DNA of 64,000 nucleotides from Proteromonas lacertae. Lineage: Eukaryota. The notes beneath the pieces were generated by a model. The model was not told the DNA's origin, searched no databases, and was given only the letters and a program-made list of their open reading frames with translations. A program made the translations under genes and the position numbers. The stretch lies in assembly GCA_002245135.1 (NCBI GenBank), contig NGBS01000873.1, positions 124,001-188,000 of the forward strand. Direction: 5' to 3'. Positions 6,022 to 63,527 of this stretch are shown here, in pieces (within the stretch, counting starts at the first letter, position 1; each line of letters starts with the position of its first letter).

Positions 6022-6931
6022 TTAATTAATTTGTTTTGATAAGTCATTCAGTTCATCTATTGAATGATATCCTGCAAATTTATGATCTTTAATAATCCAA
6101 GATGGAAATTTATCAATATCACTACAAACATTCTCATTCTCACTTAAACTACAATCAACAACATTTAATAAAGAAATAAATGAAGAAAACTCTTTAATTT
6201 GTTTCTCACACCATCCACAATGTTTTGTTACATACAAAACTGCATGTTTATCTTGTAATTGTTGAATTGTGGATGATATTAACTCTTTCTTATCAACATG
6301 CTGATTTGGCTTAATTATATCAATCCTTTCGTTAGTTTTACCATCCACATATACTATATAGTCAAAGTTACTATTCATTGTGTCTGGTTTCTGTATATAA
6401 ACTGTTCCATATCCTTTTGGACCAATCACATCAAATACTTCTCTTACATGAATAATTTCTCTTTCATTATCCTGAACTTTGAAGTAATATCTTTGTACAG
6501 ATCCTTCTTCATCTGATAATAAATTTCTTTTTATTACTAATGGATTGCCACATTTGGATAATACTTGAAAATTAGATTCAAGATATTGTTTTGCTTTTTT
6601 AGCTACTTCTGATGATCTAAAATATGGTGTGTAATATCCAGCAACACATATAACAATACCAAATCCTGTGAAAGCTCCTAGCCATCTTAGAAAATGACTC
6701 TTTTTTGGTGGTGGTGGAGGTGGAACTTCTTCTACTGTTGCCATCTATATAATAAATAAAATAGAAACAATACTTCATTTGAAAAGTAGCGAATTGATTG
6801 AGTTGCTGGAGATAGTAGAATAGTTTTGTTATTAGAAGTAAAAAATGTCTACATGCTATTTTAGATGAACCTAAAGTGTTTGATGGTACTTTCATCAATT
6901 TTATAACTCTAGAGCCTCCAATACGCAACAT
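6022..6931 (-). CDS. Putative mitochondrial membrane protein: presequence, TM, Tim21/Coa1-like region, thioredoxin-like CxxC domain
   Basis: Basic N-terminal presequence (…IRYFSNE after a probable homopolymer indel at ~6840), intron ~6745-6773, TM WLGAFTGFGIVICVAGYY, V.GPKGYGTVYI motif, and a C-terminal CGWC…VVDC…C…FPSW domain. Confidence 0.6.
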
Positions 6932-19894: not shown

Positions 19895-21538
19895 ATGGAT
19901 AATGAAGAGATAATTATTCTTGATTTTGGCTCTCAATACAGTCATCTGATCGCTAGAAGACTTAGGGGTATGAAAATTCTACTTAATACCTAGAATTGAA
20001 TATCTATTGTGAATTATTAACTTGTTTAGTGAAGGTAGATGAGTTTAAAGAAAGAAAAGGAATAAAGGTATTTGTTCTGTTATTATTCAATATAGGGAGT
20101 CATTTTTTCAGGAGGTCCTTGTGGAATTTATGAAGAAAACGCTCCTCATGTTGATACTGAAGTTTGGAATTACATAGCTGAACATAAATTACCGATTTTA
20201 GGTATATGCTACGGTTTACAAGAGATTATCTATAAATTTGGAGGTAAAGTAGAAGCTACTAAAAAGAGAGAATATGGTAAAGCTGAATTAATACAATTAC
20301 CTTTAGAAGGAGATATAAAGAAAGGAGCAGAAGCCCTGTTTACTGGTGTATCGAATAAAACTCAAGTCTGGATGAGTCATGGAGATAAAATCAATGAAAT
20401 TCCACCAAATTACGTTGATATTGGTACAACTTCCAACTCAAACCATGCATGTATAATGAATTTAAATGAAAGAATCTATGGTATTCAATTCCATCCGGAA
20501 GTTACACACACTTTAGAAGGCAAAATATTATTAAAGAATTTCGCTATTGGAATATGTAATTGTAAAGCCACTTGGAACATGGGTTCTTTCCATGAAAATA
20601 TAATTAAGTCAATTCGTGAAAAAGTAGGTGATAGTCATGTAATAGGTGCAGTTAGTGGTGGAGTAGATAGTACAGTCGCAGCATTATTAATGAACGAAGC
20701 AATTGGTAAACAATTCCATGCAATATTAGTGGATAATGGATTATTAAGAAAAGATGAAGCAAATCAAGTAATGATAAGATTAACAAAAGATGGAATAGAT
20801 TTAAGAACTGTAGATAAAAGTGATTTATTCTTAGACTTATTAAAAGATGTAAGTGATCCAGAAAAGAAGAGAAAAATTATAGGAAATACATTCATAGATG
20901 TATTTGAAGAAGAATCAAAGAAAGTTGAAGAATCAATCGGTAAGAAAGCTGATTTCTTATTACAAGGTACATTATATCCAGATGTTATAGAATCTACCAG
21001 TTTTAGAGGACCAAGTGCAACAATTAAGAGTCATCACAATGTCGGTGGATTGAAAGACAAAATGAAGTTGAAATTGATAGAACCACTTCGTGAGTTATTT
21101 AAAGATGAAGTAAGAGCATTAGGTCGTGAGTTAGGTTTAGATGAGAAATCTGTAAGTAGACATCCTTTCCCAGGACCAGGTTTAGCTATTAGATGTATTG
21201 GTGATATTAAAAAAGAATATTTAGATATTATCAGAGAAGCCGATGATATATTAATCTCTGAATTACATGAAAGTGGTGATTATTATAAAATTGGTCAAGC
21301 ATTGTGTGTGTTATTACCAATAAAATCTGTTGGAGTGATGGGAGATTGTAGAACTTATGAAAAAGCAATTGCTTTGAGAATTGTTCAAACAACTGATTTT
21401 ATGACAGCTGATTGGTATAGAATTGATTATGATTTATTGGGTAAAATCAGTAATAGAATATTAAACGAGGTTCATGGTGTTAACAGAGTTGTTTATGATA
21501 TTTCATCAAAACCTCCAAGTACAATTGAATGGGAATAA
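19895..21538 (+). CDS. GMPS: GMP synthase (glutamine-hydrolysing)
   Basis: [49 protein letters not shown] and KPPSTIEWE; two 5' introns. Confidence 0.97.
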
Positions 21539-23427: not shown

Positions 23428-25630
23428 AAATCACATTTTAATTTTTGGGTTATTCAAAATTTTGATAAAAATCGAATTTCGTTATTTTTGTTATATATTT
23501 ACATAAAGATGATAATAAAAGTAAATAAAAGCATAAGAGAAGAGGGGTATTTTTTATATTTATTTTTATGATAGATTATGTCGAAAATTGGTCGAAAGTG
23601 GTTTTGGTGATATAGAAGTGAAAATTGGAGATAGCCGAATAATGTCAATCAAGTCAATTTTAGTGAATGGAAATGAAACTGTAAAGAAACTGTTGTTAGA
23701 TCGTGAGTTTGTTGGAGTTTTAGAGTTATATGAAGAAATCGAAGAAATTGGCTATTATGAGATGGAGAAATACTACAGTGGTGGTGAACTGATAATCTGT
23801 AAAGAGAATGTGATGTGAAGTGTTGATGTTTTGTTTATGTTATTGTGAAAAAGAGATAATAAATGATTGTTATGAATTTGTGAAAGAATAATATAGATGA
23901 TGAAGTATTAATGAAATTAATTCATATCTGTAATGTATTTGGTGGATGTCTGAGAGAGATAGAAGACTTGAAAAATATGGAAATAGAAAAGCGAGGATAT
24001 AAATATTTATATAAGAATGAATATTTGTTGAGATTAGAAATGAATAATTTGAGTAGAGATATTAAATATGAGAGATGTGATAATAGTGAATGAATTATGG
24101 TTATTAAATCGTTTATTAGAATGGTATAAATTCCAAAAGAATAAGAAAGATAATAAAGAGATAGAAGATGATTTCAAACATTTGATAGAAGAAGATATCG
24201 ATTGTGAAAAGATAAAAGAGAAAAAGATAGAAAAAGAGAATAAAGAAATGTTAAAAGAAATGAATATAAAATTAAAGAAAAATGAATGTAAAAATCATAT
24301 AGAAATATATTGTATAAAAGATGAGAGAATTCAAAATGTGATAATCAACAAATACAATGAAGATAATAAAGAAGAAGACTTTAATGAAGAAGAAAGAAGA
24401 ATATTGGATAAGATGAAAGAAGAAGAATTGAATGATGAAATACTGTGTATATTAGAAATGAATAATATAAAAATGATGGAAATAGTATTGATGATAATGA
24501 AATATAAAAATATGAAAATGGAAAGTATAAATACTAAAAATATATTTAAATAGAATATATCTCAAATATAGAAAAGAGAAATCTATTGGATAGATTATGT
24601 ATAGAATATAATGAGAGTAAAAGAAATCGAACAATGAAATGTTTATATTTGTTTGTTGATGATAAGAAGAATATTTCAATAATAGGAAGAAGTATGTGGA
24701 AAAGAGATTCTTTTCAGAATATTGAATGAAGATTATTATTTAATCTCCAAATCCATAGAATTAGTAATAGAATATATAAAAGAGAATAAATTGAGTTTTG
24801 AAGAAGATGAAGAAATGATTGTAATAATGAAAGATAAAGAATTATTGAAAGAATTAAAAACAAAAGAAATCACATCATTTTCATATCCTCAATCAGAATA
24901 TTCATTTATATTAGATGAAGAAATGTCAATAATTCCATTATTTGATGGAAATCGATGTGAATTTTCAATAAATCCTTCATTGCCAGATGGAATAATGATA
25001 AATAAAGAAAATGGAATAATTAATGGAAAAGTGAATAAAGAAATCGAAAAGAGAGAATATGAAATAAGTTGTAAGAATATTGTAAATGAAAAGAAATTCA
25101 AAATATCATTAGAGTTTGTTGATGTAAAATTTACAGAATTAAACAAAAGTAGAGGAATATCAATATCAAATAATGGAAAAACAATAACAAATGCAAATTA
25201 TGACTATTATCATTGTTATTTGAATTTGATAATGGAAAATGGAGTTTATCATATCAAATATCAATTTCATCAAAATAGAAATTATTATGATGGTATGATG
25301 TTAGGATTATCAACTAATAATACATATTCTGGTAATCATATTTATTATCAATCAACAACATGTAATTATGCTGCTTGGAATGGTAAAAGTCAAGATATAA
25401 CTGATTATTGTCATATTGGAAGAGTTGTTAATTCAAAATCCAAATTTCAATAATCATGGAGATGGTTCAATTTATGAAGTGATTGTTGATATGAATAAAA
25501 GAGAATTTTGGATTAAGTCATAATAATTCATCTCCTGTTTTACTTGTTAAAGATTTACCTTCTCCATTTATATCCATATGCTGAATTATATGGTGAAAAC
25601 ACTTCAGTTGAATTATTAGTCAGTTTCTCA
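23428..25630 (+). repeat. Dispersed ~2.2 kb duplication, near-identical to 61310-63520
   Basis: Both copies start at aaatcacattttaatttttgggttattcaaaattttgataaaaatc and share long identical stretches up to the stop-codon region. Confidence 0.95.
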
Positions 25631-26677: not shown

Positions 26678-29600
26678 TTAGATTACTAACTTAATATTTA
26701 ATTTATATTTCGATTGAAATTCAAATAAATGTCTATACAAAGAAGACTTTCCACATTCATCAATCATATTATCTATTACATTAAAAAAATATGAAATACT
26801 ATTTATATATAATGTTTGTAAATGAGTTAATAAAGACAGTTTATTATATAATGACTGCAAAGAACTATTTGTTATTCTATTCTCTGAAATATCTAATAAC
26901 CTCACTCCTTTAATTGAATCAATGTTATTCATTAAATCCTCAAAATACTTATCACTTATATTTAAAGCTGTTATATAAATATAATAATCATAAGAGAGAT
27001 ATACACTTCAATTTCATCATATAACACTCTTCTGAATTCTTGAAGATATTCGATTCAAATACACTTTTAAATTCTATATTCTTATATATTAAATCATTGA
27101 GATATTGAATCTCATATTTATCACAAAACGAATAACAATTCCACATCTTATGAAGAAGAAATAAACACTGTTTCAATTCTCCTGATTCATTATATACATC
27201 ACATAACATTTTCAGTAATTCTACGTTGTACAATAATAATATAAATACTTCGATTATATCTAAACAGATAATGCCTATTTTTGAAGTAATACACGTTATT
27301 ATTTAAGAGTATGTTAAGAGGAATTGTTTTTTCTATTCTATCATTAAATCTACTATCTACATCCATTTCTATATAGATTAAAAAAGCAATTAATAATATA
27401 CTGTTTAATGAATCACATAAATTATCACAACTAATTCTCTTGAATGGATTTATTTGTGTTAAACTATTGAATAAAAACTGATAATTTGTATTTTTAATAT
27501 CAATATTTAATTCATCTTTATCTGAATAAAGATTCTTTATTCTATATTTTTCAATCCCATCATTCAAACTTTTTCCATTCAATATAAAATACATTATGCA
27601 ACCAACACTAAACATATCCGATGTTTTGTTTATTTCTTTCTTTAATATCACTTCTGGAGGCAAATAACTGTAAGTTGTTAAAGGCAATAGTATATCAGAT
27701 CTTAAGTTATATAAACAATAATCATCAATAAACAGATTAAAATCTTTGTCAAATAGGATATTAGTAGGTGATAGACTACCATGAATTAAGTTAACTGAAT
27801 TTAGACCTTTAATTGCTAAGCAAATATCTATCAAAATTTTGTTTATATTTATTATTATTTCTTCTCTATCTTTCAGCATTTCAAGAGAGTATGATAATTT
27901 TGGTTCACTAATTTCAACGGATAATTGACTAAATCTAAATGATATTATTGGTAATAAAAAACTGAATTTCATTATATTAATAATATGAGCAGATTCTTCA
28001 TAATGTTTCTTAATAGAAGTAAAAGATGGATTTATAACTTTGATCTTCTCTTGTGTTGATGTTTCTTCTTTTATAATATTACCAGTAGAATTATTTGGTA
28101 TTACTATATAAGCTGCTTTTGATGAATATTTTCTACATTTTGGATAGTGTTCTCTATAATATTATAAATCAATATATATACTTTATGAAATCTTTACACA
28201 ATCTTATTAACGAAACATCATCACTATTATTCAATACATATTCTATTTGTTCAATACAACTTTTATCAATAAACATTTGAAAATATTTATGTGAATCAAT
28301 TGAATTGTTTATTTCTTGAGCTTCTGAATTCTATTAAATTACATACCTATAAACATTTTAATACTCCTAATATATCATCATAAATATAGATTGAACTTTC
28401 AACAATATTATTATAGTCAATCATTCTGATAGTATAATTCACTAAATCAAATATTCCTAGATGAATCATTTCATTAACAGTATTTATATCTCCTTTATTT
28501 ATAATACTTTGAAATATGGAGATGATATAACCAATTTTTGTTACTATATCATCTTTGCTATCTTCAACACTGATCATATACTTGAATATATTAATTATTA
28601 ATGATAACAAACCAGAATTATATATCTTTTTGTAACTTTTATTTGAACCAATTGAAACAATATTCTTTACAATCGTCAAAACTCTTGAAATTACATCATT
28701 TTCATCATAACCTTCATTTATTTTGTACTGTCTAAATGCTACAACCAAAACTCTGTATATCTCGATTAACAATCCTTTATTAATAAGTGTAATTCCATAA
28801 TTATCAGAATTAATAGAAGAAAAGCCAACAAAAGTGTATATTATATATTCTATTAAAGAAGTAATTTCATTCTTTCTATTTTCATTTGACAATAGTTGTA
28901 TAAGTTTATTACTTGTACTTGAACACATTAATTTCACAAATTCTTCATCATTACTTCTACTAAGCTCACTAAAACTACACACACAAGTAAATATAATGCT
29001 TGTAGAAGATGAATTAATGAATATTTCTAACATAGTTGAAAAGAGTAAATAAACATGATTTGGGGATGGAAGTGTTTCATTAGAATGACAAAATAAATAT
29101 AAACTTGAAGTATAATCTTCTAGAATTGATTCACAAAAATCATTCTATTTAATTATAAAATTATAGTTAATTTATATACATTTTCTATTTTTCCTATAAT
29201 TATTGGTAAAATATCTTGATTAAGTATCGAATCTCTAACTATATCTGATATTCTACTCAAATTTCCAAGTGTTAACGAAGAAAATTCAATAATTTTATTA
29301 TCTTCACTGTCATGCATCACTTGACAAATAATATTAACCCCATTTGCTGCAACTATACTCTGCATTTGAAATTATTAAGGTAATAATAATAAAAATAAGT
29401 ATAAAAATAGGATATTTGATCTTCATTCCCAGTGGACAAATGTAGTATGATATAAATACTAAATTGTTGTATATTAGTATTACTGTTTTGTAAAAAAGAT
29501 AATAATGTGGTTACAAGACCATTGTCAATTATATCTTGAATTGTATATGATTTGCTTTGATACATATTGTTTAATGCATCTAAAGCTTCTATTACGATGG

Positions 29601-49345: not shown

Positions 49346-52300
49346 ATGTCGTTTCTGTTTTTCTCACTTATCTGTTTGTTACCGATTTATGCTAATGTGT
49401 GTAACAACCTAAAGTTTATCATGGATACAAGTGACACTGATATGACTGATTTGATAGAATCTATTTGTGGGATGTATTATGATAGTGTCACTTTAGATAT
49501 AACAGTGTTGTCACCACCTGATATAACCACTTTAGAGGTGGAATTTAAAAAATCTCAAAAAATTGGAAAAAACGTAATTGTGAGTAAATTGAAGTCTTTT
49601 GACAAAGTAGAAGTTGAATCTCTCGCTAAGAAATACAATATAATAGTTTGGGATGCTAATCTTAAGACAGATAACACTTGTCTTACCAATGTTGTTGAAG
49701 GTTTTGGTGGTTGTGTAGCAATTGCATTTGGATTGTCGGTAATTCATTATTCATATTCAAAATCAATTGTTGTATATGATTCTTCTTCACCTATATCAGC
49801 TTGTAGTGAACAGATTTATAATTATTTATTGTATGAAGGTTATCCTGGTCCAGAGCTTATAAAAGCTGAAGATCATACAGCCATAGATGATGTAGTTACT
49901 GCATATAAAGATGAAGCTGATACTATCGTATTGAATTTCTTAACTGGTGGAGTAACAGGAAGTAATTCTGAATACTTGTTCAGTCAAAGAGCTACTCAGA
50001 CAGGTCAATTTAATATTATATCATTTCATAATGTAAAAGGTCAAGAATTACTAGCTTATACCAATCCTAAAGATAGTTTGATATTATCAGAAGCATTATT
50101 ACAAATTGATATAGCTGGAAGAAAGGAATATTTAGATATTGATAAGTTTATAATGTATTAATTATATATATATATATAATTAAATAGGGTTCAATTTATG
50201 TTATTACTAATTGATATAGGCATGAATACTGGAGAAAAAGATTTATCAAAAATACATGCATTAGTGGCAGGTACAAGATATGAATTAAATGGAGAAGAAA
50301 TATTGTTATTACCAAACTTATCTCTTTCTGGAGATGTATATTATAGTAAAGTAGTAGAGGATAGTACTGGAACTATGATTTTAGAATCTATTAGTTTCTT
50401 TCCAAGAGGTTCATCAATACCTTACGTAGATATATATTCGAATCCGTATGAAAAAATATGTGATGTAACAGTCAATACTGAAGGAGAGTTTAGACCTTCT
50501 AGCTACTACTTTATTATATTGACTTATATGTCTGGTTTTTATTTAACATTTGATAGACCAATTAGAAACTGTGTAGAAGCTGCAGTTACATTATTAAACA
50601 ATGAAGTATAATAATCTATTATCATTATAAATGTGAATAGTTATCAATATTGGGTGAAAGAATATATGCAATTCCAATAGATGCAAATGATACACCAAAG
50701 AATATAAGTGATAAGATTATGGACAAATTTGAAAATTTCAATGTTATTGGGATGGTTACAACACAGGAATTTAGTGATTTTGAACAGTTGTTAGATGTTG
50801 CAAATAGTTCAATATTTGATGTAAATCTTTATTACTTGAATATTGTTCCAAATGAAATTTGTACTAGCAGTTATTATTTCAGTGGTTTAAATGTCGCTAA
50901 TATGTGGAGAGAAACAAAATCGTATTTCAATCCAACAAATATTGTTTTGATTGGAAATATAGGAACGTATTTTTACATATTTAATTATATTCTATTCTAT
51001 AGACTATTCAAAAATGCTTTAATATATATTGAAGATGACTGTAATTTAAATGATATTAATATCAGAGGAAGATATACAATGGATAGTCTATCATCTCAAC
51101 ATGCATTAAACGCTTGTAATGAGATAGAATCAGGATGTAAAAACTATGACGACTGTCTTATAGTTGTTATAACAGAAAGACAATATTTACAGATGTTTTA
51201 TGAAGAGTATTATACAAGACATTTCCCATATAAGATTTTGAATTTCAACTTGGATGAAGCAATGATTAATGTTAATAAAACACTTGTATTATATATATAT
51301 AATATTCATTATTTTTATGTTTATATAGTATGAAGGATCTTATGTGATTGGTTATTATTTTGATTCAATGGAAGGTGATAATAGTTATGATGATGAAATA
51401 AGAAATTATTTTAATAGTCCTTCAACTACAGTTAGAAACACTTATATTACTTCAACTGCTGCAATAGGATATACTCAAGTTAGGTTGTTTGCTTTAGCTA
51501 TTGATATAGCTAGAAAAACAGATAAAGATTCAATAAAGAATACAATGCAATATACTACCTATTATGGTCCAGGTGGTTTAATATATGGAAGTTCACAAGG
51601 TTATAATAGTTTTGCTGCACATGCTGGAATAGTATATACATATATTGTTCAATTTTTATTTATTTTAGGTTAAAGATGGAAATATTACAAGGTTACATAC
51701 TGCCTATTATGTTGAAAGAACAAATGCATTTGGTTTGTACAATATATCATGTGATTGGATTAATGAAATTCAATCTGTTAAAGAAAGTAAATATGTTATA
51801 TTTTTGTATGTAAGAAATCACTATACTGAAGAAGATGTTAATGATTATATATTAACAGGTCAATATGCTATTGAATATATTAATAATCAACATGATGGTG
51901 TTGCAGGATATAAACTAAGAGCAATCACTCCATACTTAACATCAGTAGAAGAGATGGTTCAATATGTGAAAAATACTATGAATGATAAAGATGTATTAGT
52001 ATATGTTGGAACATTAGCAGTCGAAGAAAGAGAAGCTATTCATAGCTTATTAGAAGAATCTAATAAACTGTTGTTAAGTATTCATCCAGCAGAAGGAAAT
52101 CAATGTTATCAGAATATTCTACAAATATCTTTTTTTTTTAATGCTGTTTATATTTTATACTTTGTTATCTTTAATGTAATTGTTTTTACTTTGGAAGATT
52201 ACCTCAGCATTATGCATTCTCAGTGTTAGCATATTCATATCAATTCCTTAGAAAATGTCTAATAATATATGATGATTTGCATTATAGTGAACATGTAGCT

Positions 52301-55300
52301 AATTTCACATTAGAATATACAAAGAATATTAGAACATTAGAATGTATTGCAGTAGAAATTAGTCATACCACTAATCTCACTGAATTTGTCAATAATACTA
52401 TCTATGAAGGATATCCTGATGGTGTTATAATATTAACAATTGTCAATCATATAACTGAAGATTTATTATATGAATTAAGAGATGCTGATAAAACTAAATA
52501 TATGATTACTATATTGGATCATATAGAGTATAAGTATTCAAATAGCAAACACAACGAAATATATGAAGGTGTTTATTATGTTACATCTTATACATATAAG
52601 ACATTATATGAGACAAATCAAGTTACAATTAGTATAACAGAATCATTTTATGGAAAACCTGAAGATCTAATGACTGATTCATCAATTACCCTTTACTCTG
52701 CTTTGAGATTATTAGATGCAGCTTACAGTGAAGATGTTAATCAAATGAGATATAATATGTATGAAAAAACAGTCGATACTCCACTAGGTGATGTAGAAAT
52801 GACAAGTGCAAATATGTTGAAGATATATTTCTTTTTGATGAGATTCGAGAATAATAATGAGAATATCATATTAGAATCAGAATATAGTTATGAAGAGAAT
52901 CAATTTTCAAGTACATTAAATGGAAAGCATCTGAAATGTCATTTTGAAGAAGGAGCTAAAGCACCGTCAATACAGGAAGAGGAAGTATATGAAATTGGTG
53001 TATGGTTAGAAGAAGATGAAAGTGTTAGATTTTCATTAGAGGAGTATTATTATTATGTTAATAGTAATGGTGGAAATGCTGGTATAAGATTTGTATATAT
53101 ATTATTTCATTTATTTTTTTACTTTTTTTTTTAATTAGGTATTAACATCGTATTATTGTAATGAAACTGATCAATTAATTGAATTAATCATGAAAGATGG
53201 TGTTGATTATATATTATCATTATGTGATGATGAAGTTCATCATAATTTATCAAATACAATAAATGAAAATAACATCACAGTATTTGCACTACAAGACCAA
53301 TATGAGTTTATGTGTGAGCCAAATATGTATATATATATATTATCATATTATTTATTTTCTTTATATATAGTGTTACAATTGGTTCATCTCCATCTCAAAG
53401 AATTATTCCATTAATCGAGTATTTATTTACTCATCATGAAACATCAGTTTATGTTATTATGCCATCTCATTATGATCCATCAATTGAATTGGATTTACTT
53501 TTATCTACCATTGAAGTGCATGGAGGAGATTTAATTAAAACACTGTTTATTGATGAAGATAATGAAACAATTTATGATGAAAATATCAGAAAAATTGGAG
53601 ATTTTGTTTCAAGTGTTCATCGTTATACACCTGATGGTGGAATTATATTAAACTATTTATATACTCTTACAGAATATGTATATCAAGCAATGTATCAAAT
53701 ATTACAGTTAAATGAAGTTCCACCAGATGAAATGTCTTTACAATTTCCAATTGTCACAATGGAGTATGATAGTTTATCAAAAATAAATATTACATATATG
53801 GATAGTCAATTTGCATTAGCAATAAATCATCTTTCAAAAGATATAAGTGAATTTTTATATGGTTTAAGTGAAAGTACATATGGTAAAGATAATGATTTAA
53901 GTGTTTTAGAAGGAAGAGCATTAATTACAAGTGAAATTATCTATACTGTAATAATTGGATTGCAGAAGAGTGAATATAAAGATTTATTATCATATGTTCA
54001 TAAAACTAATTTCACTACTTCATTTGGTGAAATTCATATTACTGAAGATAATTATTTACCTGCTATTGTTTCATTATATCAATCAGATAGATATAAAAGA
54101 ACAGCAAAAAGAATAGTACTTTCTCAAGCATGGCCAGGTGAAATATATAGAGAATCATTTCAAAACACAACTCTATTTGATGTTTGTAATGTGACAAAAG
54201 CATTAGTTGAGCCAAAAAGAAAAGATGGAACAAACCCTGCAAGAGTAAGTAGAAAATCACTAAATATTGTGTTGTTTGTTCCATTATCTGGATTATTAAA
54301 GATTCCAGGTTATGACATGTTGTTAGGTTATTTGGCTGTAATTGATTATTATAATAAAGAAATGACTGATGATAGTAGATATCTAAATCCAATAGTTATT
54401 GATACAAAATTGAGTTATGAAACTCCATTAGAAGAGATTCCTTTAATGAGAAGCAAATACCATACATTATTAGCATTTGGCATGGATAGAAGTGAAAATA
54501 GAATGAAAGTAATTGAAGCACTTGAAGATAATAATGTTATTTTATTCTATCCAAGAGATTTTGAAGGTTATGAATGTAAAGAGAATATTATATATACTGG
54601 TGTTCCATTCTCTGCTAAATTGCCATATTTGTCATGGATATTAGGCAATTTAGGTACAAAGATCTATATAATCTATACTGATAAGTATGGTAATAGAATA
54701 ATACAACAAATGGTTGAACATGATATGTTTTTAAGAGGCTATTCAATTGCTGGATTTACCAGAGTTCCACAATTGAATTATATGTTGAGTCAAGCTATTA
54801 ATCAAATTAGAGAAACCTTAAAGACTGGTGGAGTTATTATCTCGTATTTAGAAGGATCAGCAGGTTTGGAATTCTTTAAGTTAATGTATGAAAATGGTCT
54901 AACTTCTGATTTATATCATATTGTTGCTGACAATTTGGATTTGAGTAATTTGAATAGCGAATATGCAAAGTATATGGAAAATCATTATATATGGAATACT
55001 TTTTCAAGAGATGGTTATAGTTTAGAACCATTTACTAAACTCTTTAATCAGAAATTTACATTCATTAGTAGTGAATCACAAGGATATGTTCCTTCATCTT
55101 TATCAATTGTAATATTGGCAGAAGCAATGAAAATGGCAAAATTCAATTTTAGTAATGAAGTTCCATATACATTCCATGATGTGTTAGATGCAATTCATTC
55201 TGTTAGTACAAGTGAAATAAAGGTATATTCTGATAATTATATATCGTTTACACTTGTTATGCATAAAGTAGTTAAAGGTAAAGATGGTCGAATATGTTGG

Positions 55301-58300
55301 AGAAGATATTTATACATATAAATCGTATGGTAAACCCAATCCATGGTCTTCTACTTACAATATGAATGGGAAATATATTTGTGATTGGAATACTTCTAAT
55401 CCTGATAGAAATGAAACAATCCAAGTTGAAGCTATTAATATTGCAATAATATTACCATTGACTAGTATTACATTAGGTGATTTTAGTACAAGTATGCTAG
55501 AAACAACCATTGGTACTTTATTAAAGATAAATGATGAAGGAGGTGTTAATGGATTGATTATAGATTATGATGTTTTTGATACTGGTAAAGAAACTCAAGC
55601 TGAACTTGATATGGTTGCTAAGAAGATATTAAATAGTAAGAATATAGTTGCTGCTTTTGGTTGTTTATCTGAAGAATGTAAAGATACAATATCAGGTGTA
55701 ATTAAAACGAATGATATTGCATTATTTTATCCTGGTTTAGCATATGGACAAGAATGTAATAAGTATGTATATTATACCTCAACAGTTACAAATCAATATT
55801 TAGATCCACTTATTACTTATTTAACCACTTATCTAAGTGATAAACAAGTGTTATTAATAGGTGATACAAGTAGAGGATCAGGATATATAACTGAAATTTT
55901 GGACAATCAATTTAAGAATATAATGAATATTGCTGATATAATAATGCTAGAACCAGTAGATGAAGCAATTCAAGCAAAAATAACACCAGTTATAAACTCA
56001 TTACCAAATGGTGCAATTATTATAACTTATGTTCAAATAACTAATTATATTTCGATTGTTAATACATTAGAAAGTACAATTTATTCAAGTGGTTTATTTT
56101 CAATTTATGCGATAGGTATTCATAGAGATGCATTGAAAAGTATTACTACTTCAACATTAGTTGATTTGTATTTCATTTTCAGTTATTTTTCTGAATTTAA
56201 AGAACATGATCCTTATAAAGATAGTTTAGGCACTTATACTGGAAGAACAGATACATATACTACAGGTAACTCATTGTATATTTCTTTATATTTATGGAAA
56301 GCTGGTGTGGAAAGAGCTAATTCATTCAAAACTGATTTGGTTAGACCAAAGTTGTATAATGTAAAAATAGAAGGAGGAGCTGGATTTGTTGAATTATTGC
56401 CAAGTCATTATTTAACCAATCCATTCTTTATTGCTAAAGCATCAGTTAGTACTAATTCATTTTCTTTGGTATATAGTCAAACTATAGTAATTCAACCAAT
56501 GCCATATAATTGGAATATAGAAACTACATATGGTAAAACATGTAACTTCTTAGAAGATAAACCAGAAAAAACATCTATTCCATTAACAGTTATTGTAGCA
56601 GTATCTGTGACAGGATATAATAATGAAATGGAATCTGGTATTTATAACATTATTAATATGTGTATTACTGATTTAAATCACGATAATAATGGCTTATTAA
56701 ATACTCAATTGTATTTAGAAAAAGCAGATATTGGTTCAGATGATAATGTATGTATTGACACTCTGCGAAGTTTATTCAGTAGTACATCAGCTAGTATTAT
56801 TTTTACTACAGCCTCTGAATATTGTTTGAATGTGTTGATGAATGATGCATCAAAAGCTGATATTCCAATATTCCATGTTGGTTATACACCAGGTGAATCA
56901 TGTCATTATGAAGTAGTATATGGTAATAAGGATCCAAATGTTATTGAAAGAATTATTGATGTAAATTTCCAAGCATTTGAAGAATCAACTTATTATTACT
57001 CAATAGTTGGTAGTAGTGATCCTGCCAGTTCAAATTGTATAGAATATGCAAAAAAGTATATAGATTATAAAGGAGCATATGTGTATGTAACAAGTAGTTT
57101 AAATCCTGATACAGTAACAACTCAAAATGTGGATTCTGTTGTTAAAAATATTCAAGGTCAAGCTCCAAATGGTTGTTATATTCTTTTCTTTGGAACTCCA
57201 AAATTACATAAAATGTTAGATGACTCATTAAAGAAGCATTCAATGAGTTATGATAAATATCCAATACTCTCTTATTCTACAGGTGAGATAATGAATAATT
57301 ATGAAGATATTGCACCATTTATATCTGCTCAATCATTCTTTCCTGAAAGTCATCTATCTAATACAACATTATATGATCATATAAGAGAATATACAACAGT
57401 TCCATTAACAGAATATATTGTTAATTCATATGTGTTATTTCAAATGTGGGTAAGAGTAGTTGAACAAGAACATGAATTGAAATGGAGTAAAATTCGTACA
57501 AAAATGTATGATGTTCCTTTTAATGCACCTGAAGGAGCTATTCAGATCCATTCAAACAATTATCTTGATCATCATCTTGAATTAGGAAGATATAATCCAC
57601 AAACAAAGAAATTCGATATATATTATTCATCATCCAGTTCAATTGCTCCAACACCATGGAAAAGATTCATTAATGAAGGAAGATTTATTTGTGATTTTGC
57701 TACTTCTACTGCTGGTGCTAGAAAAAAACAATCTACAATTACAATTGGTTTATTAGCTTCGTATTCTGGTGATAATTCTATCATGGAAAGATCAATTGCT
57801 GAAGGTGTTTTTTATGCTGTTAATTTGATAAATAGACAAGGTGGATTGTTAGGAAATCAATTGATTGTAGAAATAAGAGATCCAGAATCAAAGACAGAGT
57901 TATATATAGAATATGCAAAAGAATTATCACAATTAGAAGAAGTAAAAGCTGTTTTTGGTGGAGGAAGATATTCTGTACAACAATTAGTTGCTCCTATTTT
58001 AGATACATACAAATTCCCATATTTCTATCCAGGCATATCAGGTGGTGAAATATGTTATGAACATTTATTCTCAACACAATCAACTGTAAGTCAAATATCA
58101 ACTGTTTTGTTGAAATATGTTTATCCAGAATTTGAGAATATGATTATTGTCACACAAAATACATCATTTGCTCAATTATTAGAAGAATCGGTTCATTCAA
58201 TGGCTGAAATTGTACATACAATTGTATTTGGCCCTTATTTATATCCAACTCTCGATGAATTATATTCATTAGAACCAAGTTTTATTGAAAATGCAGCAAT

Positions 58301-59502
58301 TATACTATTAGCAAATGCTGAAGATTATTCAAGTATAATCAATACATTGTGTGATCATAACATTGTTGCTTCAAAGGATAATATATATGCAATTACTGCG
58401 GATGGAAATAGATTAGCTGCTGTAAGACCTGAATGTATTAGAGGAATTAGAATTATTACTACTTTTCTAAAAGAAATAGGTGAAGATAGACTAGAAACAG
58501 GATATATGGAATCTGCAGCATCATTTGTAACTGATATAAAAGATAATTATGGTAATTCGGTGGTTATAACATCAGCAATGGAAGCTGCATATTCTGCAGT
58601 GCAAGTTTATGCAGATGCTGTTAAAAGTTCATATACAGATGATCCAGAATTAGTTACTCAATTGTTATGGGGTTATAGTATGAATACACCAACTGGTACA
58701 ATGAATATAAATTATAATGGGTATGCAAGTAGAGTATTCTTTTTGTGTGAAACTATAACATCTACTGATTTTAAAGTTATTCATTATTCTTCAGCAGCCT
58801 GAATATCCTGATGCTTATAATCAATATATTCAAAGAGAATTATGGTGTTGTTTGTGATTGGACAGATGGAGGTGATAAGTATAAGTTAAAATCGTTAAAA
58901 GTTGCATTTGTTCATGAGTATAATGTTTCTGCATCTGCAATGGAAGTAGAAATAATGATTCAAGAGTTTAACAAGATTAGAGATATCAATAACAACAAAT
59001 TAAATGGATATTTCTTAGTTCCATTAATGTATTTTTGTTCAACTGATGAAGACTATAAATTGATGTTGGATGAATTAGAAAATGAAGAAGATTTATCAGT
59101 CGTTATTGGGTGTAGAAGTGCAGGTTGTCGTGATAAAGTATCTGAGAGAGTAAATGCTATGAATGTGTTATTTTTATATACAGGAATAAGTGTAGGACAA
59201 AAATGTTCTAAGAATCTAGCAACATTTGGTACAACAGCTACACAGAAATCTATTCCAATCATTCAATATTTAACTGAACAAAATTTCGATTCTTTTATAT
59301 ACATTTCAACAGATGAAATTCTTTATGATACTTATTATGATATACTCATTTATGATGTTCAGAAATATTCAAATATAACTAAAATGCCGAGAGTTACAAT
59401 TCCTTCAAAAAAAGTAACAAGTGAAGATTATAAGAATGCAATAGCATCAATATTAAGATATTCTACTGAAAATCGTATAGCAGGTATACTATATTATTTA
59501 TA

Positions 59503-59535
<33 letters not shown>

Positions 59536-61240
59536 TAAATAGCATTCTACTATATGAATGGAGAAATAGGAAAAGCTTTTCTTGATGAAATGATAAAAGA
59601 AGGTATAGACTTTAGACAAGTAGTATTAATCTTAATGAGATACTCTCAAGCTGATTTTGAAGGTGATTATTTAAAGAATCTCTCAGGTGCATTAAGACCT
59701 GCTTCATTTGCTCAAGATCTTGAATCTCCGTTATCAAGATCATTTATCAGTGATATGAGAGATGGGATGGGATATGATAGTATTATTACAGAAGAAATGG
59801 AATATGTAGATTCTGCAATAAGTATATGGGAAGTAAGTATGGAAAAGAGTGCAACTGATAGTGAAAAAGATAATCCACCAATTGAATATGTTAGATTGAA
59901 TATAATTGATAGAGAAATATCAGCACCATCAGGAACAGTGAGTTTAGATAGTAGTTTGTATATTAGAAGAAGTATTTATGTATTAGAAGTGAATGATAAT
60001 GGAGAATTTGTTCAAGTATATCCCCAAACTGGTTCAACTATTATGTTTGATCCAGAACCATATCCAAAGACTGGAACTCCACCAGAATGTAATTTTGGTT
60101 TAGAAGTGAAGTATTTTGAATATAGTAGTTCAATGGTTGGTATAAGTTATGGATTAATGGCAATATCATGTATTTTGTCAATATGGACATTATTGTTTGT
60201 ATTTGCTTCAAGAAATAAGATAATTATTAGAGCATTTGGAAGAGCTTATAATTTTGCATTTGCTATACAATTGTTGATGCTTGCTTTATCGGTTATACCA
60301 ATGGCAATTCCTCCAACAGAAACGAATGGAATATGTAAAGCAAGAGTAGTTATATTGGCAATATGCGTAAAAGGAATAATTGGATTAATGTTATGTAAAA
60401 CCTACAAAATATATAGGCGTGTAAGAAGATTAAGACAGAAAATAATGAGAACAAAAATATCATTTGTTAGAGTGTTGTTATTCTGGATAGCTTTTGAATT
60501 TGTTGAAGCAATTGTCTTGATATTATGGTTTTCAATTGATCCTAACGAATATCAAGCAGTATATAGTCAGAAGTATAGTGAGTATTTCTACAGCATGTAT
60601 ATAAGAGAATGTACAGTTTCAACTCCTTTTATGTATATATATATTTATATACTATTATTTATTATTGAATAGTGTTATTCAATTAATAACAGATGGTTTA
60701 CCTACTCTCTTTTTAATTTACATTAGTTATAAGATAAAAAATGCAGCTAATGAACATAATGAAAGTATAGGATTATTTATTTCTTCAGCTGCAATTGATA
60801 TCTTTTTTTTTATTAATGATTTATTGATAGTATATTCTTAATTAATATTTTTACCTCTACTTGGAATTATAATGGTTGCTTTAGATTTCAATATTAATAA
60901 TGAACCTGATAGTGTATTGCTTTTAAGAGCAATGGGAATTGAAATAACTCAGATCATATTGATATTACTTCAATATGGATTAAAGTTAGTGAATTTGTAT
61001 ATCAATGAAGATGCAAATCGTAATATATCTTCTGGAAGTCAATATACTAACATGAGTGCTGGAAGTATGAGTAAGTTGTCAAGAACTCAATCAATGTCAC
61101 AATCTTCAGCATTTAAAACAACTCATATGAAATCAATGTTTACTCAATCAGCATTAACTAATACTAACTTAACATTAAAAACACAGAATAATCCAGGTGG
61201 AACTACATTAACAAAGAATAATGCAGCTGTAAAGAATTAA
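49346..61240 (+). CDS. Giant class-C-like GPCR: signal peptide + ~9 tandem periplasmic-binding (Venus flytrap, UrtA/AmiC-like) domains + 7TM
   Basis: Signal MSFLFFSLICLLPIYA; repeated modules with IN..GG..G, FYP…GxEC and TP.G.V motifs, each ending C[DN][WF]; hydrophobic helices at ~60130-61000 including CKAR, KTYKIYR and HNES. ORF pieces are joined by introns and a few apparent indels. Confidence 0.85.
52125..52189 (+). other. U12-type AT-AC intron (65 nt)
   Basis: 5' ATATCTTTTT, branch TCTTTAAT, 3' TTTTTAC; removal joins QCYQNILQ to FGRLPQHYAFSVLAYSY in frame with ORF 52223. Confidence 0.88.
60798..60854 (+). other. U12-type AT-AC intron (57 nt)
   Basis: 5' ATATCTTTTT, branch TTCTTAAT, 3' TTTTTAC; removal gives the TM helix GLFISSAAIALLGIIMVAL in frame with ORF 60872. 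Confidence 0.88.
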
Positions 61241-61390
61241 TAAAATAATTTATATAATATAATATATTTTTTTATTTACTTAAATACTCACATTCATATA
61301 TCAACAAGAAAATCACATTTTAATTTTTGGGTTATTCAAAATTTTGATAAAAATCTAATTTCGTTATTTTTGTTATATATTTACATAAAG

Positions 61391-63527
61391 ATGATAAAAA
61401 AAGTGAATAAACGCATAAGAGAAGAGGGGTATATTTTATATTTATTTTTATGATAGATTATGTCGAAAATTGGTTGAAAATGGTTTTGGTGATATAGGAG
61501 TGAAGATTGGAGATAGCCGAATAATGTCAATCAAATCAATTTTAGTGAATGGAAATGAAACTGTAAAGAAACTGCTGTTAGATCGTGAGTTTGTTGGAGT
61601 TTTGGAGTTATATGAAGAAATCGAAGAAATTGGCTATTATGAGATGGAGAAATACTACAGTGGTGGTGAACTGATAATGTGTAAAGAGAATGCGTGTGAA
61701 GTGTTGATGTTTTGTTTATGTTATTGTGAAAAAGAGATAATAAATGATTGTTATGAATTTGTGAAGAACAATATAGATGAAGATGTGTTAATGAAATTAA
61801 TTCACATATGTAATGTATTTGGTGGATGTTTGAGAGAGATAGAAGAATTGAAAAATATGGAAATAGAAAAGCGAGGATATAAATATTTATATAAAAATGA
61901 ATATTTGTTGAGATTAGAAATGAATAATTTGATAGAGATATTAAATATGAGAGATGTGATAATAGTGAATGAGTTATGGTTATTAAATCGGTTATTGGAA
62001 TGGTATAAATTCCAAAAGAATAAGAAATATGATAATAAAGAGATAGAAGATGATTTTAAACAATTGATAGAAGAAGATATCGATGTAGAAAAGATAAAAG
62101 AGAAAGAGATAGAAAAAGAGAATAAAGAAATGTTGAAAGAAATGAAAATAGAATTAAAGAAAAATGAATGTAAAAATCATATAGAAATATATTTAATAAA
62201 AGATGAGAGAATTCAAAATGTAATAATGAATAATTACAATGAAGATAATAAAGAAGAAGACTTTAATGAAGAAGAAAGAAGAATATTGGATAAGATGAAA
62301 GAAGAAGAATTGAATGATGAAATACTGTGTATATTAGAAATGGATAATATAAAAATGAGTGAAATAGTATTGATGATAATGAAATATAAAAATATGAAAA
62401 AGGAAAGTATAAATACTAAAAATATATTTAAATAGAATATATCTCAAATATAGAAAAGAGAAATCTATTGGAAAGATTATGTATAGAATATAATGAGAAT
62501 AAAAGAAATCGAACAATGAAATGTTTATATTTGTTTGTTGATGATAAGAAGAATATTTCAATAATAGAAGAAGTATGTGGAAAAGAGATTCTTTATAGAA
62601 TATTGAATGAAGATTATTATTTAAGCTCCAAATTCATAGAATTAGTAATAGAATATATAAAAGAGAATAAATTGAGTTTAGAAGAAGAAGAAGAAATGAT
62701 TGTAATAATGAAAGATAAAGAATTATTGGCAGAATTAAAAACAAAAGAAATCACATCATTTTCATATCCTCAATCAGAATATTCATTTATATTAGATGAA
62801 GAAATGTCAATAATTCCTTCATTTGATGGAAATCGATGTGAATTTTCAATCAATCCTTCATTGCCAGATGGAATAATGATAAATAAAGAAAATGGAATAA
62901 TTAATGGAAAAGTGAATAAAGAAATAAAAAGAGAGAATATGAAATAAGTTGTAAGAATATTGTAAATGAAAAGAAAATCAAAATATCATTAGAGTTTGAA
63001 GAAGGAAAATTCACAGAATTAAACAAAAGTAATGGAATATCAATATCAAATAATGCAAAAATAATAACAAAAACAAATGGTCTTTATAATCATTGTTATT
63101 TGAATTTGATAATGGAAAATGGAGTTTATCATATCAAATATCAATTTCATCAAAATAGGAAATTATTATGATGGTAATGATGTTAGGATTATCAACTGAA
63201 TAATACATATTCTGGTAATTATATTGCATGAATCAACCAACAACATGTAATTATGTATGCTCATTATGAGATAAAAGTCAAGTTATATTACTAGAATATT
63301 GTCATATTGGAAGAGTTGTTAATGAAAATCCAAATTTCAATAATCATGGAGATGGTTCAATTTATGAAGTGATTGTTGATATGAATAAAAGAGAATTTTG
63401 GATAAGTCATAATAATTCATCTCCTGTTTTACTTGTTAAAGATTTACCTTCTCCATTATATCCATATGCTGAATTATATGGTGAAAACACTTCAGTTGAA
63501 TTATTATCAATTTCTCATCAAATGTGA
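61391..63527 (+). CDS. BTB/BACK-like + putative Ig + SPRY-like protein, copy 2
   Basis: Paralog of 23509-25640 with the same intron positions (61429-61456; ~62407-62435); frameshifts in the 3' third. Confidence 0.65.

Follow-up and report, generated by a model that had tools for sequence, protein, structure and literature searches.

A class C GPCR-like gene in the window (meaning here the whole stretch of 64,000 nucleotides analyzed from contig NGBS01000873.1) is interrupted within its third module by 65 nucleotides that begin with AT and end with AC. This locus raises the question of whether the segment is a minor (U12-type) intron, as an earlier note on this DNA had proposed, and, if so, how a donor that departs from the U12 consensus by a C-to-T change would be recognized and where the intron came from.

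Sequence affinity of the window

The G+C content of the window is 21–30%. One of its open reading frames was compared with known proteins:

20096–21538, + strand: GMP synthase open reading frame, with similarity to Logan and named proteins

The GMP synthase is 95 and 81% identical to unnamed Logan proteins, and one diatom transcript matches it at 65% over 69% of the query; among named proteins in NCBI records, two from Blastocystis match it best (66%, full length). The available part of a study of tortoise Blastocystis isolates describes low G+C and longer, variable introns, as in the window (PMC12129017). Judged by its sequence, the window is likely Blastocystis-like and AT-rich.

The host receptor gene and its major introns

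49346–61240, + strand: host gene, class C GPCR-like, with a hydrophobic N-terminus, nine periplasmic-binding-protein-like modules and a 7tm_3 domain

PF13433 is detected in most of the nine Cys-hinge modules of this gene (none for module 1). The receptor, with nine modules before its 7tm_3 domain, has many unnamed paralogues in Logan, and no Blastocystis paper on such a gene was among the matches listed in the literature search. Its major introns comprise nine GT-AG introns of 33–59 nt, all of which start with GTAT and end with TAG, and which contain 4% C. Across the window, 63 motif-defined major-intron candidates (a set that includes nested duplicates and excludes anything <28 nt) have a median length of 36 nt and a range of 28–68 nt. 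The interrupting segment had been described as about twice the length of ~30-nt major introns; at 65 nt it is indeed ~1.8 times the median, but the major introns are themselves longer than 30 nt. A GT-AG intron in module 4 (53327–53370, + strand) is placed 7 nt upstream of where the U12-type intron would fall in this module, and the homologues P0126 and P0138 appear to end at its position.

Near 55290, 58797 and 58833 on the + strand, the frame of the receptor gene appears to be broken without a typical intron, apparently by assembly indels or pseudogene damage; apart from these three breaks, the receptor has open reading frames of 667 and 1,176 aa. Elsewhere in the window, a 2.1-kb block is duplicated (23428–25500 and 61310–63390, + strand) at 94.8% identity with 19 gap openings; many one-base gaps separate the copies, and the frame is more fragmented in the first (23428–25500).

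The interrupted module and its signals

51669–52124, + strand: upstream exon, of which residues 65–151 of 152 correspond to PF13433 positions 25–111
52125–52189, + strand: candidate U12-type AT-AC intron in the third receptor module; 65 nt, phase 0
52125–52132, + strand: 5' splice site ATATCTTT, with C>T at +6 relative to RTATCCTT, followed by a T run
52168–52175, + strand: branch-site-like TCTTTAAT (putative branch site), 14 nt before the 3' end
52190–53092, + strand: downstream exon, of which residue 5 corresponds to PF13433 position 117, giving a gap-free join

The reading frame of the upstream exon stays open over 51669–52227, and that of the downstream exon over 52175–53132. Read as coding DNA with a homopolymer error (a changed T-run length), the segment yields stops, and this reading was rejected. 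Excision of 52125–52189 joins …NILQ to FGRLPQ… in phase 0, as the earlier note had it, and the segment does sit in the third of the nine Cys-hinge modules; the proposed 65-nt AT-AC intron is thus borne out by the sequence and by the gap-free protein join.

The segment starts with ATATCTTTTTTTTTT (ATATC followed by ten T), ends with TTTTTAC, and contains 15% G+C and 63% T, while the flanking exons contain 27–29% G+C. Its AT…AC termini fit the AT-AC or GT-AG rule for U12-type introns, and its ATATCTTT donor agrees with RTATCCTT when one C-to-T change is allowed at +5 or +6. The GT…AG ends (here GTAT…TAG) that mark the major (U2-type) introns of this genome are absent from it. The branch-like TCTTTAAT matches TCCTTAAC at 6 of 8 positions, which is a weak match in an intron that is 63% T, and its distance from the acceptor, given earlier as ~13 nt, was measured at 14 nt. 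The C-to-T changes reported at both donor and branch site hold up, and every departure of this intron from consensus is C>U.

Choice of the junction

Removing 52125–52189 gives a gap-free match to the intron-less paralogues and to PF13433, colinear across the junction. A phmmer search with the downstream exon returned 21 matches, five of which (P0124, P0127, P0128, P0138, and P0139) run unbroken through the intron site; all five align across the junction, P0128 and P0124 without a gap there. A profile of these five homologues was used to score all 6,043 stop-free joins, 55 of them splice-site-like (GT-AG, GC-AG, GA-AG, or AT-AC ends). The AT-AC join at 52125–52189 scores 110.9 bits, which places it first among the 55 splice-site-like joins and sixth among all 6,043. 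Ahead of it stand five 65-nt slides that lack splice-site ends (112.2–113.0 bits), and because these score 1–2 bits higher, protein homology fixes the length of the intron but not its exact ends. The best GC-AG join scores 102.4 bits, the best of 19 GT-AG joins 98.1 bits (12.8 below the AT-AC join), and a 32-nt GT-AG join 89.2 bits. The claim that no suitable GT-AG intron joins the flanking frames therefore stands only in part: such joins damage the module motif, but 19 that restore the frame do exist, including the 32-nt 52176–52207. With a profile built from the gene's own six later modules, the AT-AC join is again first of the 55, with a margin of only 1.1 bits over GC-AG and a rank of 26 among the 6,043.

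The motif alone is not evidence for an intron, since ATATCYTT occurs often in the AT-rich window: both strands together contain 33 copies, including 25 of ATATCTTT. At the 65-nt gap fixed by homology, ATATCYTT…AC arose in 37 of 200,000 shuffles, and in 170 of 200,000 when only ATATC was required of the donor. The intron at 52125–52189 is almost certainly real, and by its sequence it is of the U12 type.

Orthologues at the intron site

Four related genomic ORFs (39–85% identical) break at the same codon as the window. The Logan ORFs were evidently predicted from unspliced DNA and hence read into introns, and the deductions about orthologues rest on these translations. P0142 (85% identical) and P0143 (61%) read through at this codon as NILQ-ISF… (Q-I-S-F), as in the window, with the +6 base unreadable from either translation. 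The translation of P0143 goes on into a shifted downstream exon, which implies a 55-nt intron with C as its last base, and reads Phe-Asn (TTY AAY) where the branch-like site would fall. P0149/P0151 (75%) have Tyr (TAY) just before LGRLPQ, and P0153 (39%) has a Tyr (TAY) end just before [FL]GxLPQ. P0153 translates the whole intron in the downstream frame and reads K-Y-P-F-F against K-Y-L-F-F from the window; its intron would therefore be 73 nt long, with CC at +5/+6 and TAY at the end. As far as these translations indicate, the base at +6 varies (C6>T) within one conserved intron, of which P0153 would carry the canonical CC donor. A search for longer homologues of the downstream exon found none among 1,442 candidates, and orthologue DNA was confirmed in 0 of 48 and 0 of 341 stretches in two metagenome scans.

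Further U12-type candidates in the window

When the window was scanned for RTATCY[TA] donors that have a branch-like site and coding sequence on either side, 60798 and 52125 came out on top; a third candidate lies in another gene:

60798–60854, + strand: second U12-type AT-AC candidate, in the receptor gene; 57 nt, phase 1, donor ATATCTTT, in-frame stop inside
29366–29415, - strand: third U12-type candidate, in an importin-alpha-like ARM gene; 50 nt, phase 0, AT-AA ends

The second candidate has TTCTTAAT at 60835–60842, 12 nt from its end. Excising 60798–60854 gives seven hydrophobic segments, and the two shortest (120 and 123 nt) of five GT-AG alternatives give six; a 63-nt form ending at 60860 is a possible alternative to the 57-nt form. 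A Pfam search with the exons flanking this intron did not match 7tm_3. The third candidate (29415–29366, - strand) has a canonical ATATCCTA donor (ATATCC) and a ACCTTAAT branch-like site, and the register of the ARM repeats is kept only by its 50-nt form. The branch-like sites of all three candidates end in AAT and lie 8–14 nt from the 3' end.

Two other scan candidates were rejected, one at 6586 on the minus strand (33 nt inside an open frame, reading as coding) and one at 59011 on the minus strand (antisense to the receptor coding region). An Rfam search of the window returned 0 matches. For annotation, these candidates carry a warning, as any model of the 12-kb receptor gene has to include two AT-AC introns.

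Recognition and fate of the variant donor

The reading favored here, with a probability of roughly two in three, is that the minor spliceosome excises 52125–52189 as a U12-type intron and that G-U wobble, with unaltered snRNAs, likely accommodates its C>T changes. Both U11 and U6atac have a G opposite donor position +6. First U11 and later U6atac would pair with ATATCTTT through a U-G wobble at this position, U12 would pair with TCTTTAAT through two wobbles flanking a bulged A, and the AC located 14 nt past the branch-like site would serve as the 3' end. Strong AT pressure (the major introns contain 4% C) may push such signals toward T where wobble allows. Since all the changes are C>U and could be absorbed by G-U wobble, compensatory snRNA changes would not be required. 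Going by general background and by the available part of the Physarum preprint, the branch-site C>U changes would face G's of the U12 recognition sequence (bioRxiv 2020.10.12.336362).

T at +6 is found in two of the three window introns, compared with 3 of 339 in the available Blastocystis ST1 rows (P = 0.0002, or 0.018 without the discovered intron). This exceeds the ST1 expectation, and therefore a sequencing artefact or a shift of the lineage also fits. In the former case the U12 intron would be real and the donor variant an assembly error, a true CC having been miscalled before a long T run. Both variant donors directly precede 9–10 T, which the intact ATATCC donor does not; moreover, the receptor gene has three apparent frame breaks, aligning the two copies of the duplicated block over 2,088 nt requires 19 gap openings, and 336 of 340 ST1 donors in the available rows are ATATCC. 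However, the T-rich branch site also appears in an independent assembly (the Phe-Asn of P0143), the same change appears twice, and unbroken frames totalling 15,283 nt contain 203 C-runs, although these frames were chosen as unbroken and would not reveal a substitution miscall. A miscall is accordingly considered unlikely.

A shift of this AT-rich lineage to a ATATCTTT donor and a YTTAAT branch site, with compensatory changes in U11, U6atac or U12, is an improbable account. It would explain the excess of T6 donors over ST1 as well as the branch-like sites, which all end in AAT at 8–14 nt from the end in contrast to the ~4–7 nt of the available ST1 rows, and intron-snRNA co-evolution has a precedent in what is available of the Physarum study (bioRxiv 2020.10.12.336362). 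On the other hand, the window itself has a canonical ATATCC donor (29415) and P0153 has one at the equivalent site, only three introns are involved with both variants in one gene, and C>U changes need no compensation.

It is very unlikely that the gene copy is a decaying pseudogene in which the C>T changes are unselected decay: typical AT-rich GT-AG introns leave its three apparent frame breaks unexplained, but its frames otherwise run for hundreds of codons (the 667- and 1,176-aa ORFs), the orthologues keep 75–85% identity, and the same donor position is changed in both introns. Excision by the major spliceosome, through GT-AG or GC-AG ends (52176–52207, 52146–52207, or 52143–52207) or through the AT-AC ends, is highly improbable as well, for although these three joins restore the frame and one has the typical length of 32 nt, they score 8.5–21.7 bits lower, lose the conserved GRLPQ, insert intron-like residues and lack the GTAT start and TAG end of the gene's nine GT-AG introns, and the orthologues break at the AT-AC position.

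Origin of the intron

No intron is present at the equivalent codon in the gene's other eight modules or in five paralogues, and because the site is absent from all of these, a gain within the receptor family is likely; it probably took place in a single module-3 lineage. The three intron-bearing sequences group together as a single clade (100/99) in a 26-row tree, from which near-copies and the upstream-only P0142 and P0143 were left out. A 12-row tree that was rooted with modules 5, 6, 8 and 9 has long branches and does not resolve its base, and the hypothesis that the five intron-less paralogues are monophyletic could not be rejected (p-AU 0.242). A single gain explains the distribution most simply, but an intron gained at the root of the module-3 group and lost once is also allowed. 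A de novo gain of 52125–52189 in the receptor family, taken by itself, is somewhat favored and, if true, would mean that Blastocystis makes new minor introns. It is unlikely that such a gain was combined with a move of the signals to ATATCTTT and YTTAAT and matching snRNA changes in AT-rich Blastocystis; if true, gain with snRNA compensation would be a second Physarum-like case of intron gain plus intron-snRNA co-evolution.

Comparison with known minor-intron systems

Minor introns are already documented in Blastocystis. The available part of one study reports 346 U12 introns, all four minor snRNAs and seven proteins in ST1, with U11, U12, U4atac, and U6atac present in both ST1 and ST7 (PMC5608401). 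In its available rows, 340 ST1 introns start with ATAT, comprising 336 with ATATCC and 3 with ATATCT, two of the latter being ATATCTTT; in roughly 60 of the rows, the ends are AC, AG, AA, or AT and a branch motif is found ~4–7 nt from the end (PMC5608401). A second study, in the part available, counts 253 minor introns in ST1 (77% AT-AC, median 39 nt, 49% phase 0) and raises their recent gain as a possibility (PMC10639083). The intron at 52125–52189 resembles these in its AT-AC ends, ATATC start, phase 0 and a length somewhat above that of major introns, and a variable 3' dinucleotide, including AA, is likewise shared. In contrast, 52125–52189 is 65 nt long against a median of 39 nt, has T at +6 against 3 of 339 in ST1, and has a branch-like site that ends in AAT and lies 14 nt from the end rather than ~4–7 nt. 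It belongs to a class already published for Blastocystis, with a described donor variant.

With respect to canonical U12-type introns, the donor falls within the published rule, which lets T replace one of the two C's at +5 and +6 (PMC2846911), and the branch distance is close to the optimum of 11–13 nt (PMC3584512), as stated in the available parts of these papers. The intron differs from them in two C>T changes in the branch site relative to TCCTTAAC, in being very short, and in lying in a lineage-expanded receptor gene and not in an old housekeeping gene. A literature search with the exact motif returned nothing, a blank that shows no novelty, as the variant is described in other words in the available text of PMC2846911. 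The earlier U12-type AT-AC reading is thus strengthened by homology, by the breaks in the orthologues and by two further candidates, while the surprise it implied is weakened by this prior description.

Physarum polycephalum offers a parallel in its signals, since ATATCYTT-AC introns are a counted class there, alongside a T-rich branch motif, AT-AA ends, and intron gain as an invoked process, according to the available part of the preprint (bioRxiv 2020.10.12.336362). It differs in having thousands of introns and a TTTGA branch motif with a matching change in U12, whereas the window has three candidate introns and a branch ending in TTAAT. The window offers evidence for minor introns in an AT-rich, Blastocystis-like genome, for which no minor-intron study was among the matches listed in the literature search. 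As a single intron, 52125–52189 is ordinary for Blastocystis, and the leads that it provides are a possible drift of the minor-intron signals and a possible de novo gain.
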